Origin: a virus
Direction: 5' to 3' (one strand)
DNA length: 64,000 bases
Virus record (IMG/VR): IMGVR_UViG_3300031673_000004
Span: 32,001-96,000 of that record
The notes beneath the pieces were generated by a model that was given only the letters and a program-made list of their open reading frames with translations, made no database searches and had not been told where the DNA came from. Shown in pieces: positions 1,059-64,000 of the stretch. Numbering within the stretch: the stretch's first letter is position 1; each line of letters begins with the position of its first letter. Position numbers and translations under genes: made by a program.

Positions 1059-2315
1059 ATGAAAAAAGGAAACAATGTAGATCATCCTGAGCACTATAAT
1101 AAACACCCTGCTGGGATTGAATGTATTGATGTAATCGAGCACTTTGGTTGTAATATAGCCAATGCTATGAAGTATCTATGGCGAGCAGGGCTTAAACCAA
1201 GTTCCGATTTAATTGAAGATTTAGAAAAGGCCAATTGGTACATTTTGCGTGAAATCGCACGGAAGAAAAAATATAAGGGAGTAAAAAAAATGACTGAACC
1301 CACAAAACTTATATGCTATAAAGGCGACCGTAGTGCCTGTTGGCTGTACCGCCTTCACGCTCCCATGGTGCACCTTGCCCGAAATAACCCAAAAGGATTT
1401 CACATTACAGTAGCAGGATCTATAGGAGAAGACCAAGTAGGAAAGTATGATTTAGCAATCCTCCAGCGGCAGTATAAACTGGATGTGTTTCAATATATTC
1501 TCCAGATGAAAAAAAAAGGAACAAAATTGGTCTATGAAATAGATGACGACTTATTTCATGTGCCCAAATGGAATCCGTCATATCAAGTTCTAGGAAAGAA
1601 AAAAGTACAGGATGGTATTAAATATTTCGTATCTGAAGTTGATGCAATGTTTGTAACAACCGAAGCATTAAAATCAGTCTACGAAAATTATTGCAAACAT
1701 ATTTATGTGTTACCAAATTCGATTGACTTTGATTTTATATTTCCGCTAGATAATCCTAGAGAAAATACATCTAAACCAGTAGTCTGTTGGCAGGGATCTA
1801 TGACGCATGAACATGATCTTGCTGTTGCCAAAAGAGAATTTATAAAACTAGCAAAGGATAAAGATATATTATTTAAAATGTGGTGTGGGTTGGATCGGGT
1901 AACCAGAAAACCAAATTTTGATATACCGGGGGCACAAACAATTCAACTTACCCCTTTCGAAGGCTTTTTTCAGATGTTCGGTCAATTAGGGGTTTATATT
2001 GGCTTAGCCCCCTTAGCAGCAACACAATTCAATAGAAGTAAATCAAACTTGAAGTTTTTGGAGTATACAGTGTATAATGCAGTCACTGTGGCATCTGACT
2101 TTGGACCATATAAAGATACCATAGAAGATGGCGTCACAGGAATTTTGGTTGCAAATAACAATGATTGGTATAATAAGGTAAAGGAACTATTGGACAATGA
2201 AGATTTATATACTTCTATATTGACAAATGCAAAGAAATTGGTAGCTGAAAAATTTGATATAAACAAGAATTACATTTACTGGGAACAGGCAATCAAACAA
2301 ATTTTAGGAGAGTGA
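1059..2315 (+). CDS. DUF3310 domain fused in frame to a GT-B (GT4-like) glycosyltransferase
   Basis: N-terminal NVDHPEHY..IECIDVI..NAMKYLWRAG.K...EDLEKANWY; downstream YEIDDDLF, LAPL...FNRSKSNLKFLEY; internal AAGGGAG before ATG 1290. Confidence 0.8.
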   Translation: MKKGNNVDHPEHYNKHPAGIECIDVIEHFGCNIANAMKYLWRAGLKPSSDLIEDLEKANWYILREIARKKKYKGVKKMTEPTKLICYKGDRSACWLYRLHAPMVHLARNNPKGFHITVAGSIGEDQVGKYDLAILQRQYKLDVFQYILQMKKKGTKLVYEIDDDLFHVPKWNPSYQVLGKKKVQDGIKYFVSEVDAMFVTTEALKSVYENYCKHIYVLPNSIDFDFIFPLDNPRENTSKPVVCWQGSMTHEHDLAVAKREFIKLAKDKDILFKMWCGLDRVTRKPNFDIPGAQTIQLTPFEGFFQMFGQLGVYIGLAPLAATQFNRSKSNLKFLEYTVYNAVTVASDFGPYKDTIEDGVTGILVANNNDWYNKVKELLDNEDLYTSILTNAKKLVAEKFDINKNYIYWEQAIKQILGE

Positions 2316-19831: not shown

Positions 19832-20007
19832 AATCTTTATTGAGACTAATACTTAGTGATTTATCTCGATATAAAGAAACTTATCACATCAGACAAGGTA
19901 GTAAGAATTTTTTCTTGATATGCTTAGAATCAGTTTTATTTAAATATCGTACAAGACATTCCACCTTCTTCGCGTATTTTATCTGCAGATATTGGAATAA
20001 TTCATGA
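19822..20007 (+). pseudogene. Probable internally deleted acetyltransferase remnant
   Basis: LILSDLSRY start resembles CysE/WcaB-like N-termini; another frame reads NIVQDIPP, like the end of a hexapeptide domain; the core is absent. Confidence 0.4.
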
Positions 20008-21131
20008 AGATTGAATTCTACAAACATAACATTGGACTTAGAGAAAAGATAAGCATATGGAAATGCTTAAATTCTACTTTTTTAACTACAGGAGAACATG
20101 TTGTCAAGTTTGAAAGGGATCTTGCAAGGTACTTAACTGTGCAACAGGGCATTGGAGTAACAAGTTGCACTGCTGCGTTACATTTGTCCCTATTAGCTTT
20201 AGGTATTGGTTCTGGAGATGAAGTTATTACCACACCAATGACATTTGCAGCAACTGCATTAGCAATTATACAATGCGGTGCAACCCCTGTTTTTGTTGAT
20301 GTTGAAAAAACAACTGGCAATATGGATACTAATTTAATAAAAAAAGCGATCACAGATAAAACAAAAGCAATAGTTCCAGTACATTTATATGGCCAAATGT
20401 GCAACATGCTAGAAATAAAAAGAATAGCAGACAAGCACAACTTGTTTATTATAGAAGATGCGGCGCACGCATTAGAAAGTTATCGGGACTTTATTAAGCC
20501 TGGGCAAGTATCAACTACTGCATGTTTCAGTTTTTATACTACTAAGAGCATAACATGTGGTGAGGGTGGTGCAATTGTTACAAATTCAGATAGTCTTGCA
20601 AAGAAGATTAGATTACTTAGAACGCATGGATTATCACAAGATGCTGCAAATAGGTATGAAAAATTTAAGCATTGGGATATTGTAGATTTTGGTTGGAAAT
20701 ATAATATGAGCAATATTCAAGCCAGCTTACTTATTCCACAATTGAAAAACGTAGAAAATTATTGGAAAAAAAGAGAAAAATGCTTTAATATATATGTGCA
20801 GGAACTACAGGGCATAGGGGGCGTTCGCATACTCAGTAAAGTACCGAATGCGAAGCATGGGTGTCATTTATTTACTGTACTTGTCGCACCGGACAAGCGG
20901 GATTTGATTGTTAAAAAGTTGCAGAGTGTTGGGATTAACACAACAGTTAATTACAGACCAGTGCATTTATTAAAAAAATTTAGAGAAGTATATGGATATG
21001 ATTGTGGAGATTTTCCAAACGCTGAAGAAATTGGTGCATCAACGATTTCTTTGCCGTTATATCCAAAACTAAAAAATAAAGAAACGCTGTATGTAATAAA
21101 GACTGTTAAAAATATTGTTGGAAGTGTGTAA
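20004..21131 (+). CDS. DegT/DnrJ/EryC1/StrS sugar aminotransferase
   Basis: SCTAALHL, GDEVIT, PVHLYG, EDAAHA, FSFY.TK.ITCGEGG, SLPLYP. Confidence 0.95.
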   Translation: MKIEFYKHNIGLREKISIWKCLNSTFLTTGEHVVKFERDLARYLTVQQGIGVTSCTAALHLSLLALGIGSGDEVITTPMTFAATALAIIQCGATPVFVDVEKTTGNMDTNLIKKAITDKTKAIVPVHLYGQMCNMLEIKRIADKHNLFIIEDAAHALESYRDFIKPGQVSTTACFSFYTTKSITCGEGGAIVTNSDSLAKKIRLLRTHGLSQDAANRYEKFKHWDIVDFGWKYNMSNIQASLLIPQLKNVENYWKKREKCFNIYVQELQGIGGVRILSKVPNAKHGCHLFTVLVAPDKRDLIVKKLQSVGINTTVNYRPVHLLKKFREVYGYDCGDFPNAEEIGASTISLPLYPKLKNKETLYVIKTVKNIVGSV

Positions 21132-35084: not shown

Positions 35085-37187
35085 ATGGCAAAGCAAAAAA
35101 AGAAAGATAAAACTAAGGTTGACTCTGTAGATCAACTAATAGTAAACATCCAGAAAGAGTACGGAAGGACAGCTATACGCCGAATGAACGATAAATCAAT
35201 TATAAAGGTAGATACAATTTCTACTGGGTCCATACTGGTTGATGAAGCCTTGGGAATAGGGGGATTCCCCCGTGGAAGGCTCGTAGAGGTATTCGGACCT
35301 GAAGGATCTGGAAAAGCACAGCCACTAGATGCAAAAATCCTAACGCCTATTGGGTGGAAAACTATGGGCGACATTCGCCCAGGCGATCTTATAATTGCGG
35401 CAGATGGCAATTCGGCTGTTGTCAGCGTGACATTTCCACAAGGTAAAAAAGACATATTTGAAATAGTTTTTTCAGATGGAAGTAAAACTGAATGTTGTAA
35501 AGACCACCTATGGACGGTACAAACTTGGGAGGACAAACAAAACAATTTATGGAGAATTTTGCCGTTATGCGAAATAGTGAAGGACTTCAAACTAAGCGAC
35601 AGATTAAAGTATATGATTCCATTAGTAGATCCCGTAACGTTTAGTAAGCAGGAAAAAGAATTACCATTAGATCCATACATTTTAGGAATGCTCCTCGGTG
35701 ACGGGAGTTTTTCGCAAGGAAGTACTATAAAATTTTCTACAGCGGATGCTGAACTGGTAACTTCATTACAAACATTTGCTAAACAAACTAAATTGAAAGT
35801 AAAGAAAATAGGTAAGAGTAAATATGATTACACAATTAGTAAAATTAAAAGGGGCCATAATAAATCGTGGCTAACAAAAACACTAGAAAAGCTTGGGTTG
35901 CATGGGCTACGATCTCACGAAAAGTTTATCCCTATAGAATACTTATATGCGTCAATCCAAGATAGAATGGCGATACTCCAAGGATTATTGGACACTGACG
36001 GGTCTATTAGTAACGGACACCGTATGGTAGAGTTTGTTACAACAAGTAGATTACTTGCTGAAGGTGTGCAACATTTGGTACAAAGTCTAGGGGGTAAAAC
36101 GGGCATATCGACTAAACAGACACATTATACCTACGCAGGAAATACATTATCAGGAAAACCTGCATATAGAATGTCCATACTAGCACCAAGAAACATAGCG
36201 TTATTTAGACTAACACGTAAATTACACAAATCTAAAATTTGTAAACAATTAGACTATCGAAGCAGGTGGATAGCAGGCATAAATTACATTGGTAAAAAAG
36301 AAGCCAAATGTATTTATGTAGATCACCCAGACCACCTGTACGTAACTAACGACTTTATCGTTACGCACAACACCACGTTATCACTGCATTGTATCGCAGA
36401 GGCGCAAAAATTAGGAGGAGAGGCACTATTTATAGACGCTGAACATGCGTTTGATCCGACTTTAGCTCAAAAGATCGGGGTAAACCCTGAATTACTTTCG
36501 ATCTGTCAGCCTGACTCTGGAGAGCAAGGCTTGGACGTTCTTGAGATGGGCGTAGCGTCTGGTAAACTGGCCATAGCAGTCGTAGATTCTGTCTCTGCAC
36601 TCGTCCCACAGGCTGAGATAGATGGAGACATGGCTGCGCAACAGATGGGCCTCCAGGCGCGTCTAATGGGCAAGGCAATGCGCAAAATCAATGGTTTTGT
36701 CTCTAAAACCAACACTTTAGTTATATTTATCAATCAACTAAGACAAAAAATTGGGGTAGTATTCGGAAATCCTGAAACGACCAGTGGTGGAAATGCCCTC
36801 AAGTTCTATGCAAGTATCCGCATGGACATTCGTAGAATTGGATCCATCAAGGAAAAAGGCAAGAAAAAAGATAAAGATGAAAAAGCAGAGGTTAAAATTA
36901 TAGGTAACAAAGTAAGAATAAAAATTATTAAGAACAAATTAGCTCCACCCTTCAAAACAATAGAAACAGATCTTATCTTTGGGCATGGATTTAATAAAGA
37001 AGGAGAAATTCTTGATCTCGGGTATGATTTAGATGTCTTAGAAATGCAGGGAGCTTGGTATAATTATAAGGACGAAAGAATAGGACAGGGTAAGCCCAAT
37101 GCATGTAAAGTATTAAGAAAGACACCTAAGTTACTAAGGGCTATTGTAGCGGACATTCACAAGGCGCAAGCAGATGAAAATAGCTAA
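35085..37187 (+). CDS. recA: RecA recombinase, intein-containing
   Basis: [19 protein letters not shown]|[40 protein letters not shown]. Confidence 0.97.
35316..36371 (+). mobile_element. Ala-initiated class 3 LAGLIDADG intein in RecA Walker A
   Basis: GSGK|AQPLDAK...DHLW...GMLLGDG...GLLDTDG...KCIYV...IVTHN|TT; W, C and T triplet present. Confidence 0.9.
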
Positions 37188-59143: not shown

Positions 59144-61021
59144 ATGAAAGCATACGTGAATCTGTTCAAAGCATTGCCTGTAGGAAAGCGCACTAAGTCC
59201 TTCTCAACAAAGTACTTGGACAAGGGCGTGCTGGTCGAGGATTCTGTAATTGAGGCACACGGAACTGCCAAAGTTGCTAAACTGGTTCGAAGTCTCGTTC
59301 CTACAGATTCCCAGATGAACAAGACCTTCCACAAATCATGGAAGAAAGTCAGGGACGCATCTATTGAGCAGCTAGTTATAGAGCAGATCATTCACTATTT
59401 TACAACCTACAGCTTTGAAGCATTGGGCTTCTACAGTAAAGAGACTGTTTACATCCCGAATGAAAAGTTGGAGCTAGAAGCGAAAGGCGGCATCACTTTT
59501 TATGTTCTGCGTGGCATCACACGGGATGAACTGATTGATGTGGTACACAAGCTCATTTCTTCAGGGATTGCCCTATCTGACCAAGATCTTACTGATTTGG
59601 TCAAAGTCATTAAGGATCAAAAATTAAAAATTGATCCAGCTAAATCAAGCAATAGGGAGATGGCTGTCAGGTTGTACAACTTGCTTGATATTACTCCCAA
59701 AGACCCAGTTGAATACTTGCGAATGAAAGTATACGGTGCAACTGAAAGTACGCTGCTAATTAAGAACAAGGAAGCTATTGAAGCTATTTCTAGTTCTTAT
59801 AGTTCTGCGCTTGGGAAAAAAATCAATGCGTTCAGCGAATACAAGAAAAAGTTTGGGCTTGAGGGTTTAGCGTCCATTTTCTACAGGTTCAAGCCGTTGT
59901 TCTTGGCATTCAAAAATAAGAAATCAGCAGCGACAGTAAATAGTATTCGGCGGCTAGCAGTAAAGTATCACCAGCCCATGCCAGAAGATTACATTGCTTC
60001 AGTCACCAAGCATTTGCGCAACGGCACATTCAGTGCAGCCAAGCTCAATAAGAGCCTTACTAAAGCAAATATATTCAGAAAGGTACGGCTCGCACAAGCA
60101 CTGCGTCTCTATGATAACCAGGATGCATCTGGTATCGTGTACTCTATTCGCAATGGTAAATCATTTGCCGGTACTATCAATCCACTTGGTAAGAGCGTCA
60201 AAAGATCACTATCAGTAGTAATGGATAGTTTGGGCGCAGACCTTTCCCATGTAAAAGGAAAGAAAATCTTTATGGATGCAGGGTTGGTTGTTCCTACATC
60301 AGGCAAGATGTTCATGGGTGATGTACCATTTGGGTCGTATTTTTCTACTGATGATTCACTAGTGCTAGGAGTATCTTGGCGAGATCTAGAAGATGTCCGT
60401 GTTGATCTGGATCTTTCTATTATCTCAGTGGATGGAAAGATCGGTTGGGATGGTTATTACAGAGATCCAAGCTGCCTCTTTTCAGGAGATATTACAGCGG
60501 CCCCCAAGGGAGCTACTGAAGCACATTTGATTCGTGCCGATTCGGAGGATGGGATTTATCTCCTTAACTTGAATTACTATAACGCTAATTACTATAACGC
60601 TGATATTAATGGAGGAATAGTCCCATTCACTCTGTTCGTAACCGAGGAGAAAGGATTCGAGCGTATTGAACGGCGCGCTGTAATGTCTCAGGATAATATG
60701 GTATTCTGGGCTGACTCTAGCATAGACAGCAAGTACAACCAGAAGACTATCGGTGTTTTGAAAATCAAGGATGGTACCAAAACATTCCATGCCTTCGAGT
60801 TCAAGACTGGTAAAAGTATCACTTCCCGAAACAATGAAAAAAGTATGAACACGATTAGCTACTATGACAAATATCTGGATTCTCTTCTTGACTTGGAAAC
60901 ACTCGTAGAATGGGCAGGGGCTAAAATAGTAGATACTCCTGAGAAAGCAGATATTGATTTATCTATGAAATCGCTTACAAAGAGCACACTGATTGATCTT
61001 CTGGTAGCTGATACCAAATAA
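59144..61021 (+). CDS. Large protein with helical N-terminus and TerD-like C-terminal domain
   Basis: GAGGG before ATG 59144; C-terminal GVSW...VDLDLS...IGWDG...FSGDITAAPKGATE resembles TerD motifs. Confidence 0.65.
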   Translation: MKAYVNLFKALPVGKRTKSFSTKYLDKGVLVEDSVIEAHGTAKVAKLVRSLVPTDSQMNKTFHKSWKKVRDASIEQLVIEQIIHYFTTYSFEALGFYSKETVYIPNEKLELEAKGGITFYVLRGITRDELIDVVHKLISSGIALSDQDLTDLVKVIKDQKLKIDPAKSSNREMAVRLYNLLDITPKDPVEYLRMKVYGATESTLLIKNKEAIEAISSSYSSALGKKINAFSEYKKKFGLEGLASIFYRFKPLFLAFKNKKSAATVNSIRRLAVKYHQPMPEDYIASVTKHLRNGTFSAAKLNKSLTKANIFRKVRLAQALRLYDNQDASGIVYSIRNGKSFAGTINPLGKSVKRSLSVVMDSLGADLSHVKGKKIFMDAGLVVPTSGKMFMGDVPFGSYFSTDDSLVLGVSWRDLEDVRVDLDLSIISVDGKIGWDGYYRDPSCLFSGDITAAPKGATEAHLIRADSEDGIYLLNLNYYNANYYNADINGGIVPFTLFVTEEKGFERIERRAVMSQDNMVFWADSSIDSKYNQKTIGVLKIKDGTKTFHAFEFKTGKSITSRNNEKSMNTISYYDKYLDSLLDLETLVEWAGAKIVDTPEKADIDLSMKSLTKSTLIDLLVADTK

Positions 61022-61210
61022 CGACTCTTGGAGGGCATACTATGGCCCCTGACAGCCAAAAGCTTGATCGGGTCTTCGGAGCACGCTCCAAACCGCCTAC
61101 GCAAGCCCGGTAGGACTAAGACGGTTAGGAAGCTTCTGGAGTATAGCGAATTCTTGCTTGGGGAAATACTATATTCTGGATCTTTTTAGGGCTTATTTTT
61201 GGAGGATATA

Positions 61211-61486
61211 ATGAAACTAAAAAATATTATCTTAGGTCTTATAGAACAACTTCCCATTAAAAGAGCGTTCATAAATTTCTTCGTAACAAAAAATGCCTGG
61301 GGAATGTTTCATAAAAATTCACATCTAAGTACTAAAAGCGGTAAACATAAAATTGAATATGGATCAAAGGAATCCGCAAGGAGAGCTGCAGACAATATGC
61401 AAAAGAAGTATGGGAACTATTACAGTGTTTACAAATGTATATTCTGTGATGGTTACCATATTGGTAAAAACAGGGACAATAAATAG
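61211..61486 (+). CDS. Small CxxC..H zinc-binding phage protein
   Basis: GGAGG before ATG 61211; YKCIFCDGYHIG. Confidence 0.75.
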   Translation: MKLKNIILGLIEQLPIKRAFINFFVTKNAWGMFHKNSHLSTKSGKHKIEYGSKESARRAADNMQKKYGNYYSVYKCIFCDGYHIGKNRDNK

Positions 61487-61588
61487 TTTTAAATTGCAGC
61501 GCATTAAAGATAGGCCAGAGGGTAGGTCTTGAGGGTACTCACAGTAGTCAACCATAGAGATGGTTTTGGTAACGCCCACCCCGAATTT

Positions 61589-61661
61589 GGGCACGTAGCT
61601 CTAACGGGAGAGCAGAAGCCCTGCAAGCTTACGGTTGCCAGTTCGAATCTGGCCGTGTCCA
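61589..61661 (+). tRNA. tRNA-Ala(UGC), C33
   Basis: GGGCACG/CGTGTCC with G3:U70; AAGC-CCTGCAA-GCTT; A73. Confidence 0.85.
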
Positions 61662-61667
61662 TGTTTT

Positions 61668-61740
61668 GCCCAGGTAGCCGAATGGAATAGGCGGCAGTCT
61701 TAGGAACTGCAATTTGGGGGTTCGAATCCCTTCCTGGGTA
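61668..61740 (+). tRNA. tRNA-Leu(UAG), short variable loop
   Basis: GCCCAGG/CCTGGGT; GCAGT-CTTAGGA-ACTGC. Confidence 0.85.
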
Positions 61741-61754
61741 TCTCATTATTATTT

Positions 61755-61864
61755 GGGGCTAAACCGTAAGGTTGAATGGTACAGGTAAGTTGGATAACCA
61801 ATGGCATCCGGGCGTTCAAGGTTACCACGGCCTTCTATCCGGTGTTCCAACCTGGCCAAGCCCT
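61755..61864 (+). ncRNA. ~110-nt rod-like hairpin RNA candidate
   Basis: GGGCT/AGCCC, AGG..GTTGGA/TCCAACCT, AAGGTT/GGCCTT. Confidence 0.4.
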
Positions 61865-61869
61865 ATTTT

Positions 61870-61953
61870 GGAAGCTAAACTTGTCGTGGGATAAGTCCCG
61901 GTTGCTACCCGGAGTGTGGGCAAAACCATGTGGTTCGACTCCACTAGAGGCCA
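61870..61953 (+). tRNA. Non-canonical tRNA-like RNA with GCU (Ser) anticodon and Sec/allo-tRNA-like arms
   Basis: D arm ACTTGTC-GTGG-GATAAGT, CCGG-TTGCTAC-CCGG, long variable arm, 4-bp T stem GTGG/CCAC, 8-position acceptor with 3 mismatches. Confidence 0.55.
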
Positions 61954-62024
61954 TATATATAACAGACAGATAGTAATGTCAAGTAACTATTCAAGAGTTC
62001 AATCCCCTCACCACATATTTTTTT

Positions 62025-62095
62025 GGGTTGGTAGCTCAATGCTAGAGCGAGCGTATGCGCATAGCTGACACACGGTTCAATTCCTGTCCAGCCCA
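62025..62095 (+). ncRNA. tRNA-like RNA without a normal anticodon loop
   Basis: GGGTTGG/CCAGCCC acceptor, GCTC/GAGC D arm, TTCAATT T loop; anticodon arm is AGC-G-TATGCGCATA-GCT. Confidence 0.55.
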
Positions 62096-62098
62096 TAA

Positions 62099-62184
62099 TA
62101 CGAACGCCTGGAGATGTAGGTTTGAATCCTGCTCCCGTGGCAATTACGGGATAGTTTAAAGGAGAGAATACCAGGCCGTTTTTT
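62099..62184 (+). ncRNA. Circularly permuted tRNA-like RNA (YrlA/Y RNA-like) 1
   Basis: TACGAACG-CCTGG, T arm GTAGG/CCTGC, TCCCGTG-GCAAT-TACGGGA closed acceptor, D arm, CCAGG-CCGTT. Confidence 0.7.
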
Positions 62185-62213
62185 CAAGGTTTAGTAAGTT
62201 ATGGTATTTTAAC

Positions 62214-62242
62214 TTTACAAACTTTACATTCATGAGTATTAT
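62214..62242 (+). promoter_or_regulatory. Sigma-70 type promoter, probably giving a leaderless mRNA
   Basis: TTTACA-17 nt-TATTAT, ATG 6 nt downstream, no SD. Confidence 0.65.
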
Positions 62243-62248
62243 ATCCAC

Positions 62249-63031
62249 ATGGAACAAATCAAAAAATGCAAATTCGCTAATGGCACTGTTTACGCACTGC
62301 ACACAGATGATGGCTACCCAATTGAAACAACAGATACTTTTCTTCCCTTTTACACAAAAGATGCCATCGGAAAGCACCAAAACAAACTAGACAATTATCA
62401 GCTTGGGGATCGTTCGGAACGTTGGATGATCGGTGTTTCTGTAATGTCAGGTTGCCCTGTGAAATGTCAATTTTGTGCAACGGGGCAACTTCCAAGGTAC
62501 CGAAATCTTACAAGTGATGAAATTGTTGATCAAGTTCGATTTGTCCTTCAGCAACACCCAACATTAGAATTCAGCAAAGCTAAAGAACACAAAATAAATT
62601 ACACTAGAATAGGTGAACCGTTTTTATGTATTGATTCCGTGAGAAAAGCAATCGGAGAGATTGAAAAAATATACCCAAATACTCATCATTATGTTTCTAC
62701 TATTGGAATCAAAGGATCCGATTTTTCCTGGATTCAAGAAAATATAACATTACAAATATCATTGCATGCATGTTCTGACCAGCGTAGAGATGAATTAATC
62801 CCATTTCGCAATAAAATGACTATAGAAGAGTTAGGGGCAATTCGAACCAAAAGCAAATTGAAGACAACATTGAATCTTACTCTTGTAAATAAAGATGATT
62901 TTGACATAGAAATTTTGAAAAAATATTTCCCTCCAAAGTATTTCTTCATCAAGCTAAGCCCTATCAATCCTAATACAGTTTCGGAAGCACATGGATTAGA
63001 CAGTGTAATCGAAGCAGTTAACTTAGTCTGA
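62249..63031 (+). CDS. RlmN/Cfr-like radical SAM protein lacking the C-terminal catalytic tail
   Basis: SGCPVKCQFCATG, RNLTSDEIVDQV, RIGEP, STIG, LQISLHA...RDELIP. Confidence 0.88.
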   Translation: MEQIKKCKFANGTVYALHTDDGYPIETTDTFLPFYTKDAIGKHQNKLDNYQLGDRSERWMIGVSVMSGCPVKCQFCATGQLPRYRNLTSDEIVDQVRFVLQQHPTLEFSKAKEHKINYTRIGEPFLCIDSVRKAIGEIEKIYPNTHHYVSTIGIKGSDFSWIQENITLQISLHACSDQRRDELIPFRNKMTIEELGAIRTKSKLKTTLNLTLVNKDDFDIEILKKYFPPKYFFIKLSPINPNTVSEAHGLDSVIEAVNLV

Positions 63032-63043
63032 AAGGAGCTTATC

Positions 63044-63163
63044 ATGGCGGAAATTATGGAGCAATTGGATGAGGCTGGTTACGATTACGCAATTGCCATT
63101 GCAACACAAGCAGAAATCGATGCAGGTGCAGCTTGTGGGCAGCTTTCCATCATTGTAGAGTAA
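63044..63163 (+). CDS. 39-aa peptide carrying the RlmN C-terminal AACGQL motif (absent from ORF track)
   Basis: AAGGAG then MAEIMEQLDEAGYDYAIAIATQAEIDAGAACGQLSIIVE; in frame with upstream TGA. Confidence 0.85.
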   Translation: MAEIMEQLDEAGYDYAIAIATQAEIDAGAACGQLSIIVE

Positions 63164-63170
63164 CTTTTAT

Positions 63171-63276
63171 GCCGGGAGTGGATGAGTGCCGATATCACCA
63201 GAGTGGACAGTGGGGATAGCGGGTTTCTCCGGAGTGCCCGTCCGCCACGCAGAGTTCAAGTCTCTGCCTCCCGGTC
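63171..63276 (+). ncRNA. Enlarged tRNA-like RNA (acceptor and T arm, atypical middle)
   Basis: GCCGGGAG/CTCCCGGT, GCAGAG-TTCAAGT-CTCTGC, internal GTGG/CCAC and GCGGGT/GCCCGT. Confidence 0.55.
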
Positions 63277-63294
63277 TTGTCTGAACCTACACGG

Positions 63295-63447
63295 TTGCTC
63301 TGAGGCGCGGCAGCGCCTGGGTTGCGGTTGTGGAGCTTCTACATACAAAGCCAATCTGCGTCTGCCGACAAAAGGAAAGGCATGTAGGGAAGCAATGGAG
63401 CCGGGTGGCGGAATCCGGCCAGAGCAAAACGGGTTGTCGGATGCAGC
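63295..63447 (+). ncRNA. Multi-helix, possibly pseudoknotted RNA candidate
   Basis: TTGCTCTG/CAGAGCAA, AGGCGC/GCGCCT, GCTTC-TACAT/ATGTAG-GAAGC, CCGACAA/TTGTCGG. Confidence 0.5.
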
Positions 63448-63455
63448 AGTTTATT

Positions 63456-63654
63456 GTAAATTACGAATCCCGGAGATCGCCGGTTCGAATCCGGTCAGGG
63501 TAACACCACGGCTAATCTGAATTTTACAAAGTCTAGCTAACATGTAAAATTCCCTTGAACCGATCTTCAGTTCGCGGCTGTCGAAGAGTTCATTGAACAA
63601 GATTAATACGGGATATATCCTGTAGCTCAGTGGTTAGAGCACCGGGAATTTTAC
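63456..63654 (+). ncRNA. Circularly permuted tRNA-like RNA (YrlA/Y RNA-like) 2 with structured insert
   Basis: TACGAA-TCCCGG, T arm GCCGG/CCGGT, CAGGGTA ... TATCCTG-TAGCTCAGTGGTTAGAGCA-CCGGGA. Confidence 0.75.
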
Positions 63655-63725
63655 GCGGGTATGGCCGACTGGATAGGCTCAGGGCCTCCAACCCTGCTAA
63701 GCACGTTCGATTCGTGTTGCCCGCT
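63655..63725 (+). tRNA. tRNA-Gly(UCC), C33
   Basis: GCGGGTA/TGCCCGC, U73; CAGGG-CCTCCAA-CCCTG. Confidence 0.85.
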
Positions 63726-63728
63726 TAT

Positions 63729-63801
63729 GACAGTGTAGCCAAATGGTAAGGCACTGGTCTGCAAAACCAGTATGTGATGGGTTCAAATCCCTCCGCTGTC
63801 T
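63729..63801 (+). tRNA. tRNA-Cys(GCA)
   Basis: GACAGTG/CGCTGTC, U73; CTGGT-CTGCAAA-ACCAG. Confidence 0.92.
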
Positions 63802-63804
63802 TTT

Positions 63805-63877
63805 GCCGGGGTGACGGAAAGGTATACGTGCTGCTCTCAAAAAGCAGATTTTGTCGGTTCGAATCCGACTCCCGGTA
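63805..63877 (+). tRNA. tRNA-Leu(CAA), short variable loop
   Basis: GCCGGGG/TCCCGGT; CTGCT-CTCAAAA-AGCAG. Confidence 0.88.
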
Positions 63878-63898
63878 TAATGTTAATAGGAGATAAGC

Positions 63899-64000
63899 AT
63901 GTACAGAGTATGGGTTACACAAGGACAAGGCCCAGGTGAAAAACCTCAATGTGAATTTGAAACATTAGAAGAGGCACTCGCAGAAGTAGAAAAAATGAAA
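63899..64000 (+). CDS. 3'-truncated hypothetical protein
   Basis: AGGAG before ATG 63899; open to window end. Confidence 0.6.
   Translation, partial: MYRVWVTQGQGPGEKPQCEFETLEEALAEVEKMK

Follow-up and report, generated by a model that had tools for sequence, protein, structure and literature searches.

Two neighbouring phage genes as putative subunits of one RlmN/Cfr-type radical SAM enzyme with a detached cysteine peptide

In the stretch of DNA analysed here (64,000 nucleotides, hereafter the window), two neighbouring ORFs of a large tailed soil phage are regarded here, with somewhat better than even confidence, as coding for a single radical SAM enzyme of class A (RlmN/Cfr type) that consists of two subunits and acts on nucleic acid (Table 1). 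RlmN, the C2-methyl synthase of 23S rRNA A2503 and tRNA A37 (PDB 3RF9/3RFA, 4PL1, 5HR6/5HR7 and 6FZ6), and Cfr, the C8-methyltransferase of 23S rRNA A2503 (TIGR04432; PDB 9P0P), are the textbook cases of methylation via a protein-bound methyl-cysteine, and two cysteines have been held indispensable for it. RlmN carries both of them, the methyl carrier Cys355 and the resolving Cys118, on a single chain, in contrast to the two polypeptides of the phage pair. The original prediction had described an RlmN-like core that stops at a TGA, bears Gly in place of Cys118 and is followed by a short ORF with its own AAGGAG and an AACGQL loop, and the ORF1 motifs, the TGA, the AAGGAG, the GAACGQL loop and the Gly codon were all recovered at their predicted positions.

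Table 1. Positions in the window of the two genes, their key codons and motifs, and the flanking tRNA genes
Feature	Position	Strand	Remark
tRNA-Ala, tRNA-Leu	61588-61742		Flank of pair
tRNA, Rfam-only	62025-62095		Flank of pair
Putative core subunit gene, RlmN/Cfr-like radical SAM (ORF1)	62249..63031	+	260 aa, TGA 63029-63031
Gly62 codon, RlmN Cys118 (resolving Cys) position	62432..62434	+	PDB alignment; invariant in 15-row alignment A1
CPVKCQFC, CxxxCxxC [4Fe-4S] ligands Cys69, Cys73, Cys76	62453..62476	+	Aligned to RlmN cluster motif
Arg120 codon (TRIGEP)	62606..62608	+	Aligns with E. coli RlmN Gly177, adjoining Met176
AAGGAG, Shine-Dalgarno-like	63032..63037	+	Six bases before peptide ATG at 63044
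Putative small subunit gene, 39 aa	63044..63163	+	Strand YDYAIAI and AACGQL loop
Cys31 codon, RlmN Cys355 (methyl carrier) equivalent	63134..63136	+	Alignment; invariant in 17/17 rows
tRNA-Gly, tRNA-Cys, tRNA-Leu	63655-63878		Flank of pair

The core is a distant relative of RlmN and Cfr. Its translation contains the cluster motif together with GEP and ISLHA, and it was matched by the RlmN model TIGR00048 at 2.9e-20 (72.5 bits, the cut-off of 290 not being reached) over residues 56–195 only, by the Cfr model TIGR04432 at 48.9 bits (cut-off 550, not reached) and by PF04055 at 1.9e-6 (28.6 bits, just below the cut-off of 29.5). Among PDB chains phmmer matched RlmN at 7e-11, and in PHROGs the core matched only phrog_24834, a family of unknown function. 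A Foldseek search with the AF2 model of the core (pLDDT 81.9) returned RlmN chains at ranks 1–10 (E 1.3e-10 to 4e-7, TMq 0.63–0.68; best matches 6FZ6, 3RF9 and 5HR6) and Cfr at rank 11 (E 9.8e-7). RlmN is the best match in both sequence and fold, with CxxxCxxC, GEP, SLH and AACGQL common to it and the phage proteins. Cfr has the same class A radical SAM methylase fold, but it is the weaker match and, unlike the phage pair, is a single chain with both cysteines, and nothing suggests that the phage enzyme would confer antibiotic resistance. The N-terminal helical RNA-binding domain of RlmN has no counterpart in the core: the matches begin at position 102 of the 355 model positions and at chain residues 112–116, and only 55 core residues precede them, of which residues 2–31 were modelled as strands and 37–41 as a short helix. 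A 22-residue insertion (residues 34–55) was modelled with low confidence at 36–49.

The position of the resolving cysteine could be assigned by alignment. phmmer aligned the core segment SERWMIGVSVMSGC with DDRATL[A118]VSSQVGC of the C118A RlmN chains 4PL1 and 5HR6, and also with ...TTVCVSCQVGC of 6FZ6, which has Cys at that position, so that Gly62 corresponds to Cys118. By residue count on the PDB alignment, a Thr of the core takes the place of RlmN Met176 and Arg120 that of Gly177. The only conserved cysteines of the core are the three cluster ligands (15-row alignment A1), and Cys31 is the sole invariant one of the peptide (17-row alignment); the resolving cysteine is thus absent, as predicted, and no other conserved cysteine offers a substitute. 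The core ends 45 residues before a Cys355-type loop would be reached, and the methyl-carrier cysteine is not on the same chain.

That loop is found on the 39-residue peptide, where GAACGQL holds Cys31. phmmer aligned the peptide segment EIDAGAACGQLS with RlmN GDDIDAACGQLA, which contains Cys355, in a stretch that is below significance on its own; the alignment and the invariance of Cys31 uphold the prediction that the peptide bears the Cys355 loop. A PHROGs search with the peptide gave no match. The peptide is strongly acidic, with eight Asp/Glu and no basic residues, and its core region hardly varies between phages whose hosts are unrelated. Its median pairwise dN/dS was 0.063 (991 pairs, 26-codon core), a value that is biased low because the sequences were picked with a motif. 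The peptide is a gene under selection. A Shine-Dalgarno-like word at −20 to −4, such as the one preceding it, occurs in only 14 of 57 window ORFs (background 0.13), and the 25 bases upstream of ORF1 contain no such word.

Since the peptide ORF and ORF1 share a frame and only four sense codons lie between the TGA and the ATG, the two could in principle be read as a single 304-residue chain by read-through of the TGA, with the 39-residue ORF as a mere by-product, and the pair of Moorella phage MTATph1 is in frame as well. The in-frame stop of MTATph1, however, is TAA, and other lineages have other frames, gaps of more than 1 kb or an upstream peptide. In the window, which is translated with code 11, TGA is an ordinary stop that ends 18 of the 57 ORFs (non-nested, plus strand, at least 100 aa), and no suppressor tRNA was present among the 9 tRNAs found. 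With the peptide possessing its own Shine-Dalgarno-like site and ATG, we regard read-through as highly improbable. A bare in-frame stop would also result from a faulty read or assembly, or from a pseudogene in decay, and nothing more speaks for these. On the other hand, the TGA was unchanged in contigs of two further runs, X4 and X5, which come from samples other than that of the window, although possibly from the same sampling campaign; these contigs were identical across 63029, where a continuous protein would need a sense codon, and the only difference in the peptide ORF among the runs compared was synonymous (63112 A>G, X5 contig). Together with the conserved split described below and the low dN/dS of the peptide, the other-run contigs refute an error or pseudogene in practice, and we give it next to no weight. 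The window itself may derive from run X1. In the RNA run X7 we also came across one 151-base contig identical to 62370–62520, which is not proof of transcription because DNA can occur in such libraries.

Related loci were collected with an alignment as query, a single core protein having found nothing. A word-indexed search with an E limit of 1e-5 returned 2561 proteins, and an exhaustive one with a limit of 0.001 returned 2839 cluster representatives; megablast of 61000–64000 against cultured phages gave no match. The survey set drew 158 distinct core ORFs from 245 loci. The 118 position was occupied by Gly in 124 cores, none of them fused to a Cys tail, and a separate peptide ORF was present within the examined locus for 120 of these 124, so the predicted split proved genuine and conserved. 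Neither Gly with fusion nor Cys with a split occurred at all (0 and 0 among the 158). A peptide HMM found a homologue in 80 of the 83 first loci; in one record of 112,725 bases (L017/L163, estimated 90% complete) the core was present and no peptide match was found anywhere. Downstream peptide genes lie within 150 nt of the core in 70 loci, at 151–2000 nt in 46 and beyond 2000 nt in one locus, and three loci have the peptide gene upstream. Every reading frame relative to the core is represented, and the cores stop with TAA or TGA. Cultured phages with the pair infect Bacteroides, Moorella, Vibrio, Yersinia and Pectobacterium and account for at least 8 records; they include Pectobacterium phages Arno18, Arno162 and Wc4, Yersinia phage vB_YenM_P778, Vibrio phage D479, Kehishuvirus 'tikkala' and Moorella phage MTATph1. 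Abundant gut crAss-like phages have the pair as well. Vibrio phage D479, the one cultured record of the 8 with a duplication, has two peptide copies in tandem, and in P0125 the peptide is fused to the N-terminus of the core, which fits the peptide as a fixed subunit. The pair fits a fissioned two-subunit design, in which both genes are kept across lineages and their products are predicted to assemble.

Assembly was assessed on a model of the complex, which the original prediction had proposed to build. The core and peptide gave an ipSAE of 0.84 (0.82–0.84 in three runs), compared with 0.02 for the best of 3 controls, although this pass may stem from likeness to RlmN, because a single-chain relative of the split halves has already been solved. 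In calibration the pass mark was reached by 58 of 80 solved complexes and by 2 of 110 mismatched pairs. The runs shared at least 84% of contacts, with a partner pLDDT of at least 81. In the model, peptide residues 13–17 lie against core residues 232–236 (FFIKL) and residues 23–38 against core residues 75–78 and 119–121, so that the peptide is placed at the cluster face and is predicted to dock as the last strand and Cys loop of RlmN, sitting much as they do there.

Whether the split and the loss of Cys118 belong together, as the original prediction had supposed, was examined among the relatives. The co-occurrence holds in one direction: every unfused core (124/124) lacks Cys118. The loss is nevertheless not tied to the split, because a whole clade of single-chain relatives is also without Cys118. 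These relatives (I/V/N type, for example P0203, P0215 and L212–L232; about 300–330 aa, mostly from CPR/DPANN bins) have a fused ...SNCGQ tail (...IGSNCGQ). Their residue in the 118 position is I, V, N, T, A or M, and they share with the phage pair the Cys355 loop and an Arg before MGEP; no NCBIfam model matched them above its cut-off. In 4 of the 5 CPR/DPANN genomes tested, such a protein was the only RlmN-family match, and the fifth genome had a near-canonical RlmN in addition to it. A quick tree with SH-aLRT support only placed all Cys118-bearing representatives in one clade (SH-aLRT 98, 29 rows) and the Cys118-less fused forms in another (SH-aLRT 100, 19 rows), with the Gly types unresolved at the base, which is compatible with a single origin of the split. 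Short phage RlmN-like enzymes of the VICCS...GGGCGQLW type, which are phage-borne and have no N-terminal domain, like the core, belong to the Cys118-bearing clade and differ from the phage pair in being single chains with both catalytic cysteines; that of Stenotrophomonas phage BUCTxx99 (WPH68542.1) is annotated as 'prohibitin family protein', and its gene lies inside a tRNA array. A further, related Gly clade of KIGVS type (19 metagenome loci) has no Cys peptide nearby, and nothing of this type was found in viral contigs; Gly at the 118 position would therefore not always be accompanied by methyl-Cys chemistry, which counts against the two-subunit reading preferred below.

The loss of Cys118 was accompanied by a second change. 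Two residues ahead of MGEP, all 37 Cys-type representatives have S, G or A, and Arg stands there in 16 of the 19 representatives of Gly type and in 27 of the 29 others without Cys118; at the level of loci, every scorable Gly core (116/116) and every I/V core (18/18) has Arg. In these alignments, the loss of Cys118 together with the gain of Arg suggests that the active site has been rebuilt rather than disabled.

On our preferred reading, that of two subunits of one enzyme, the reaction, the type of nucleic acid acted on and the turnover can be inferred as follows. The [4Fe-4S]/SAM site would be held by the 260-residue core, and the acidic peptide would be bound non-covalently, its YDYAIAI strand completing the sheet beside core FFIKL and its AACGQL loop putting Cys31 over the cluster face, whereby the RlmN active site would be rebuilt from two chains. 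By analogy with RlmN, Cys31 would be S-methylated by one SAM, and a second SAM would yield a 5'-dA radical and then a Cys-S-CH2 radical, which would add to an sp2 carbon of adenine in the nucleic acid, more likely RNA than DNA. The step performed by Cys118 in RlmN would be done differently across the Cys118-less clade, with Arg120 as the foremost candidate for a role in it, a suggestion drawn from covariation alone. Because of this putative substitute, we think it more likely that a methylated product is released and the core turns over than that a permanent adduct forms.

The original prediction had proposed the adduct. Without a resolving cysteine, the link Cys31-CH2-adenine would never be broken, one peptide would be used per reaction, and the peptide would stay covalently on a tRNA, rRNA or other nucleic acid, which it could mark, block or shield. 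The chemistry behind this is in print: PMC9692996 reports that RlmN C118 mutants stay cross-linked to RNA and that Cfr also uses a two-Cys mechanism, and the title of 5HR6, 'C118A RlmN with cross-linked tRNA purified from Escherichia coli', agrees, that of 5HR7 saying the same. This trapping of the adduct counts against our preferred reading and for a consumable peptide. The absence of any other conserved cysteine and the restriction of the split to cores without Cys118 also favour consumption, and a part spent in one reaction would cost little as a separate peptide. The strong AAGGAG ahead of this separate gene, where ORF1 has no such word, and the double peptide of D479 would suit a consumed peptide too and weigh against our reading. 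The C118A/S mutants resemble the phage core in having no thiol at 118 and keeping the methyl-carrier Cys, but they are laboratory single-chain proteins without compensating changes, whereas the phage clade has the covarying Arg and is under selection. If loss of Cys118 gave a dead-end adduct, the single-chain relatives, which are the only RlmN-family match in most of the CPR/DPANN genomes tested, would be destroyed in use as whole enzymes that work once. The covarying Arg points to a substitute mechanism, P0125 has the peptide fused, the duplication is confined to the one cultured record, and a strongly acidic peptide would be an odd thing to fix onto RNA. Of the claim that the split and the Cys118 loss fit together, it stands that the split never occurs with Cys118; the fused clade, the Arg and P0125 speak against the rest. 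We consider a consumable tag unlikely, and about equally unlikely the fuller version in which the peptide is a single-use co-substrate, Cys31 becomes methylene-bridged to an adenine of host or phage RNA (or DNA), the acidic 39-mer is left attached and Arg120 stabilises the adduct. If true, a great many phages would possess an enzyme that naturally conjugates a peptide to nucleic acid.

The kind of target bears on a further alternative, in which the same enzyme would modify bases of phage DNA and shield the genome from host nucleases. The missing RlmN N-terminal RNA-binding part, as seen in the alignments, would favour this and count against our preferred reading, and the pair sits in the replication/nucleotide-metabolism part of the phage, with nucleotide kinase-glycosyltransferase and aminotransferase genes elsewhere in the window. 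The tRNA genes, which in the window do lie on both sides of the pair as the original prediction had noted, are no trait of the family: a tRNA gene occurs within 2.5 kb of the Gly-type core for only 9 of 124 distinct cores, a rarity that would suit a DNA target, and we rejected these neighbours as a clue to the target. To our knowledge, however, RNA is the substrate of every characterised RlmN/Cfr family member; modifying thousands of bases seems a poor task for a step that depends on a peptide, and no conserved DNA-modification partner gene was found adjoining the pair in the surveyed loci. A DNA target is, in our judgement, quite unlikely.

The remaining proposal of the original prediction, that the peptide itself is a RiPP-like substrate whose Cys31 or a neighbouring residue is modified by the core to give the product, has more against it than for it. 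A small precursor-like ORF adjoining a radical SAM gene would suit it, and in 41 of 124 loci genes for a second radical SAM protein (MoaA/viperin-like, with no family above its cut-off) and a small methyltransferase lie between core and peptide. But the peptide is homologous to the C-terminal strand and loop of RlmN and has no leader-core architecture, the core gave no Pfam or NCBIfam match to a SPASM, auxiliary cluster or RRE domain (PF04055, below its cut-off, being the only Pfam match), and near-invariance of the peptide across unrelated hosts is typical of an enzyme part; we consider this reading very unlikely. Some second radical SAM gene is present in 49 of 124 loci and NAMPT or NMNAT-Nudix genes in 13 of 124; no second radical SAM, methyltransferase, NAMPT or NMNAT-Nudix neighbour was found in the window, and conserved neighbours give no handle on function.

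A search of published articles turned up none that describes an RlmN-like enzyme that is split or encoded by a phage. PMC2836569 states only that the family includes sequences 'from viruses', and its supplementary full alignment may contain such sequences.

A large clade in nature thus lacks the second of the two cysteines, and its phage members put the first on a detachable 39-residue peptide. Either possibility would be new for radical SAM enzymology: the adduct is resolved in another way, for which Arg120 is the candidate, or the adduct is the product, and nucleic acid would then, if this is true, be modified in a way not seen before. Because gut crAss-like phages and cultured phages carry the pair, it is directly testable, and how it affects the RNA of host or phage may be relevant to phage takeover or counter-defence.

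Translation of the window, together with family and PDB alignments, bore out the original prediction of an RlmN-like ORF ending at a TGA and of a separate ORF carrying the AACGQL motif; both lie in the same frame with four sense codons in between. ORF1 matched the NCBIfam model TIGR00048 over residues 56–195 (2.9e-20, 72.5 bits, cut-off 290) with lower scores for the Cfr models, and in Pfam it matched PF04055 alone, slightly below the cut-off of that family. Judged by its sequence, ORF1 is a distant RlmN/Cfr relative; its AlphaFold2 model had a pLDDT of 81.9, and Foldseek ranked RlmN chains at 1–10 and Cfr at 11. The 39-aa peptide, which contains eight Asp/Glu and no basic residues, had no family match in Pfam, NCBIfam or PHROGs. 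When ORF1 and the peptide were aligned to PDB chains by phmmer, Gly62 fell at the position of the resolving Cys118 of E. coli RlmN (occupied by Ala in chains 4PL1 and 5HR6, both C118A, and by Cys in 6FZ6), confirming the predicted Gly, and the peptide stretch EIDAGAACGQLS, below significance on its own, was aligned with GDDIDAACGQLA around the methyl-carrier Cys355.

Features of the window and of loci compared with it (window positions unless a locus is named)
Feature	Location	Strand	Remarks
ORF1 (core, 260 aa)	62249-63031	+	CPVKCQFC, GEP and ISLHA present; stop TGA 63029-63031
AAGGAG	63032-63037	+	directly after the ORF1 stop
39-aa ORF (peptide)	63044-63163	+	MAEIMEQLDEAGYDYAIAIATQAEIDAGAACGQLSIIVE
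Arg120 codon of the core	62606-62608	+	aligned with E. coli RlmN Gly177, by counting along the phmmer alignment
Cloverleaf-like fold, 111 nt	63168-63278	+	directly 3' of the peptide gene; -47.6 kcal/mol, z -2.4; long acceptor stem, T-arm with loop GUUCAAG, long extra arm; no tRNA call by ARAGORN or Rfam
tRNA-Arg(ACG), 138-nt intron	63296-63504	+	ARAGORN with introns allowed; absent from default run and Rfam
tRNA	62025-62095	+	Rfam only (39.8 bits), ~150 nt 5' of ORF1; ARAGORN tRNA-Arg(GCG) only with lowered threshold
Nucleotide kinase + glycosyltransferase ORF	1059-2315	+	single ORF (PHROGs matches)
Aminotransferase ORF	20004-21131	+	PHROGs match
700-aa ORF	35085-37187	+	residues 70-440 match P-loop families (terminase large subunit, DnaC-like loader); UvsX-like recombinase matches in three stretches, best 430-586
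Four-gene cassette	L016 2501-4574		core, 255-aa second radical SAM (MoaA/viperin-like), 148-aa class I methyltransferase, Cys peptide
Doubled peptide unit (Vibrio phage D479)	L003 2857-3081		...EVKEAGFDAGLAIATDAEV.AGAACGQMAIL, tandemly doubled inside one ORF
319-aa RlmN-like enzyme (Stenotrophomonas phage BUCTxx99)	L084 2995-3954		single chain, both catalytic Cys, inside a tRNA array

A sense codon at 63029, which would make one continuous protein, was not found in further sequence data: the position was identical in contigs from X4 and X5, two additional metagenome runs from soil, while the run X1 may be where the window itself came from. Two differences in X5 were a synonymous change at 63112, in the third codon position within the peptide ORF, and an Ile121 to Met change at 62611 that gives the residue usual for the family. 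The window reads as using the standard code (stops of 57 non-nested plus-strand ORFs: TAA 32, TGA 18, TAG 7), and no suppressor tRNA was present among the nine tRNAs found in it.

The split is conserved, and it is this conservation that settles whether it is real. In cultured phages, core and peptide are annotated as two genes: the core stop is TAA in Kehishuvirus ‘tikkala’ and Vibrio phage D479, with the peptide in a different frame, and also in Moorella phage MTATph1, with the peptide in frame, while in Yersinia phage P778 a 98-aa ORF one gene further along contains the peptide motif. The D479 peptide ORF, which holds two tandem units, matched eight cultured phage records by tblastn, D479 being the only one with the duplication. 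Core homologues numbered 2561 at E ≤1e-5 in a word-indexed search (the best 120 of the 2561 all 257–298 aa long) and 2839 at E ≤0.001 among cluster representatives in an exhaustive search. Of the 245 loci that we pooled, 159 came from IMG/VR, 80 from genome bins and 5 from cultured phage records, the remaining one being the window; together they contained 158 distinct core ORFs. Gly at the 118 position without a Cys tail was accompanied by a separate peptide ORF in the examined locus in 120 cores and by none in 4 (L046, with the peptide just beyond the locus edge; L072 and L180, short stretches; L223, partial); 16 cores had Cys and 18 had Val/Ile, each with a fused tail, and the combinations of Gly with a fused tail and of Cys with a split did not occur among the 158. 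The downstream distance from Gly core to peptide gene was 150 nt or less in 70 of the 124 cases, 151–2000 nt in 46 and greater in 1; in 3 the peptide gene preceded the core. Genes for a second radical SAM protein and a small class I methyltransferase stood between core and peptide in 41 of the 124 Gly loci, which rules out read-through as a route to one chain at these loci. This four-gene cassette recurred in phage contigs from Bacteroidota bins and from Clostridia/Bacilli bins. One IMG/VR contig of 112,725 bases (L017/L163) had a Gly-type core and no peptide match in the whole record; its DNA 3' of the core is unlike that of close relatives. The median pairwise dN/dS of the 26-codon peptide core was 0.063 over 991 pairs, a value biased low because the sequences were chosen by motif.

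The expectation that the split and the loss of Cys118 go together held in one direction only: every split form lacked Cys118, but so did many single-chain relatives. By a crude motif test on cluster representatives with a sufficiently long tail, unfused and fused forms numbered 25 and 0 for Gly, 8 and 25 for Cys, and 11 and 20 for other residues. The genome-bin loci repeated the pattern, with an I/V type bearing a fused ...IGSNCGQ tail chiefly in CPR and DPANN bins and a VICCS...GGGCGQLW type retaining both Cys. This I/V-type protein (L212–L232) was the sole RlmN-family match in four of five CPR/DPANN genomes (G004, G005, G007 and G008), and the fifth had a near-canonical RlmN besides it. A maximum-likelihood tree built by a quick method from 74 cores grouped all Cys118-bearing forms in one clade (SH-aLRT 98, 29 rows) and the I/V/N fused forms in a separate one (SH-aLRT 100, 19 rows), leaving the Gly forms unresolved at the base. 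These single-chain Cys118-less relatives weaken the proposal that each peptide is used once and left attached to nucleic acid as a tag, a proposal with a sound chemical basis in the C118A precedent.

The residue two before MGEP covaried with the 118 position. Among representatives it was S/G/A in 37/37 of the Cys type, and Arg in 16/19 of the Gly type and 27/29 of the others lacking Cys118; among locus cores it was Arg in all 116 scorable Gly and all 18 I/V cores and Ser in all 16 Cys cores. The Gly177 aligned with Arg120 of the window core adjoins Met176, which is named in the review PMC9692996 as a stabiliser of the Cys355 radical. We infer that the Cys118-less clade probably has a remodelled, working active site, and the covarying Arg likewise argues against a tag consumed in one turnover.

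The enzyme–peptide complex was modelled from the core alignment A1 and the peptide alignment A4 with a 4Fe-4S cluster and SAM, and the peptide docked as the own last strand and Cys loop of RlmN are placed. The complex score was 0.84 (0.82–0.84 in three runs) vs 0.02 for the highest-scoring of three controls, at a pass mark reached by 58/80 solved complexes and 2/110 mismatched pairs in calibration; at least 84% of contacts were common to the runs, with partner pLDDT of at least 81. Peptide residues 13–17 (YDYAI) were predicted to pair with core 232–236 (FFIKL), and residues 23–38, including Cys31, to contact core 75–78 (FCAT, cluster motif) and 119–121, spanning Arg120. Since core and peptide correspond to two pieces of a single chain of known structure, the pass demonstrates resemblance to RlmN, may stem from the predictor having memorised that structure, and is not proof of binding.

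Variant architectures were also found. In the metagenomic protein P0125 (315 aa), the peptide is fused N-terminally to a Gly-type core, a circularly permuted single-chain form that fits the peptide being a fixed subunit; given this form as well, we consider a consumable tag unlikely. A related clade with Gly at the 118 position, the KIGVS type (KIGVS...YCFT, ~270 aa; P0178, P0188, P0196, P0198, P0200, P0209, P0210, P0213, P0229 and P0232), has Gln/Glu before MGDP and retains the GF.YA strand, immediately after which it stops, short of the Cys loop. None of 19 metagenome loci (L247–L265) had a Cys peptide nearby, a hairpin with a T-run, read as a terminator, comes after several of the genes, and the type appears to lack both catalytic Cys. 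The BUCTxx99 enzyme is annotated ‘prohibitin family protein’, a product name that looks wrong.

The window pair is located within a tRNA array, as originally noted, but this is not a family trait, a tRNA gene lying within 2.5 kb of only 9 of the 124 distinct Gly cores. NAD-salvage genes (NAMPT, NMNAT-Nudix; Pfam) were near 13 of the 124, and the window had neither these nor a second radical SAM gene with a methyltransferase. With tRNA neighbours rare and the salvage and cassette genes absent from the window, the context points to no target. The window also encodes helicases, including a DnaB-like one, a UvsX-like recombinase, an SbcC-like protein and endonuclease VII, and comes from a large tailed phage. 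Its kinase/glycosyltransferase and aminotransferase ORFs could belong to a pathway for modifying DNA bases, and the 700-aa ORF may represent either a fusion or a recombinase gene that has been interrupted.

A search of full-text literature, covering main texts, turned up no paper describing an RlmN-like enzyme that is split or encoded by a phage; in excerpts of Kaminska et al. (PMC2836569) viral sequences are merely mentioned as family members. The best-supported reading is that the pair is a putative two-subunit class A radical SAM enzyme with a nucleic acid as target, in which the small subunit would provide the methyl-carrier Cys and the step of RlmN Cys118 would be taken over by the remodelled site.
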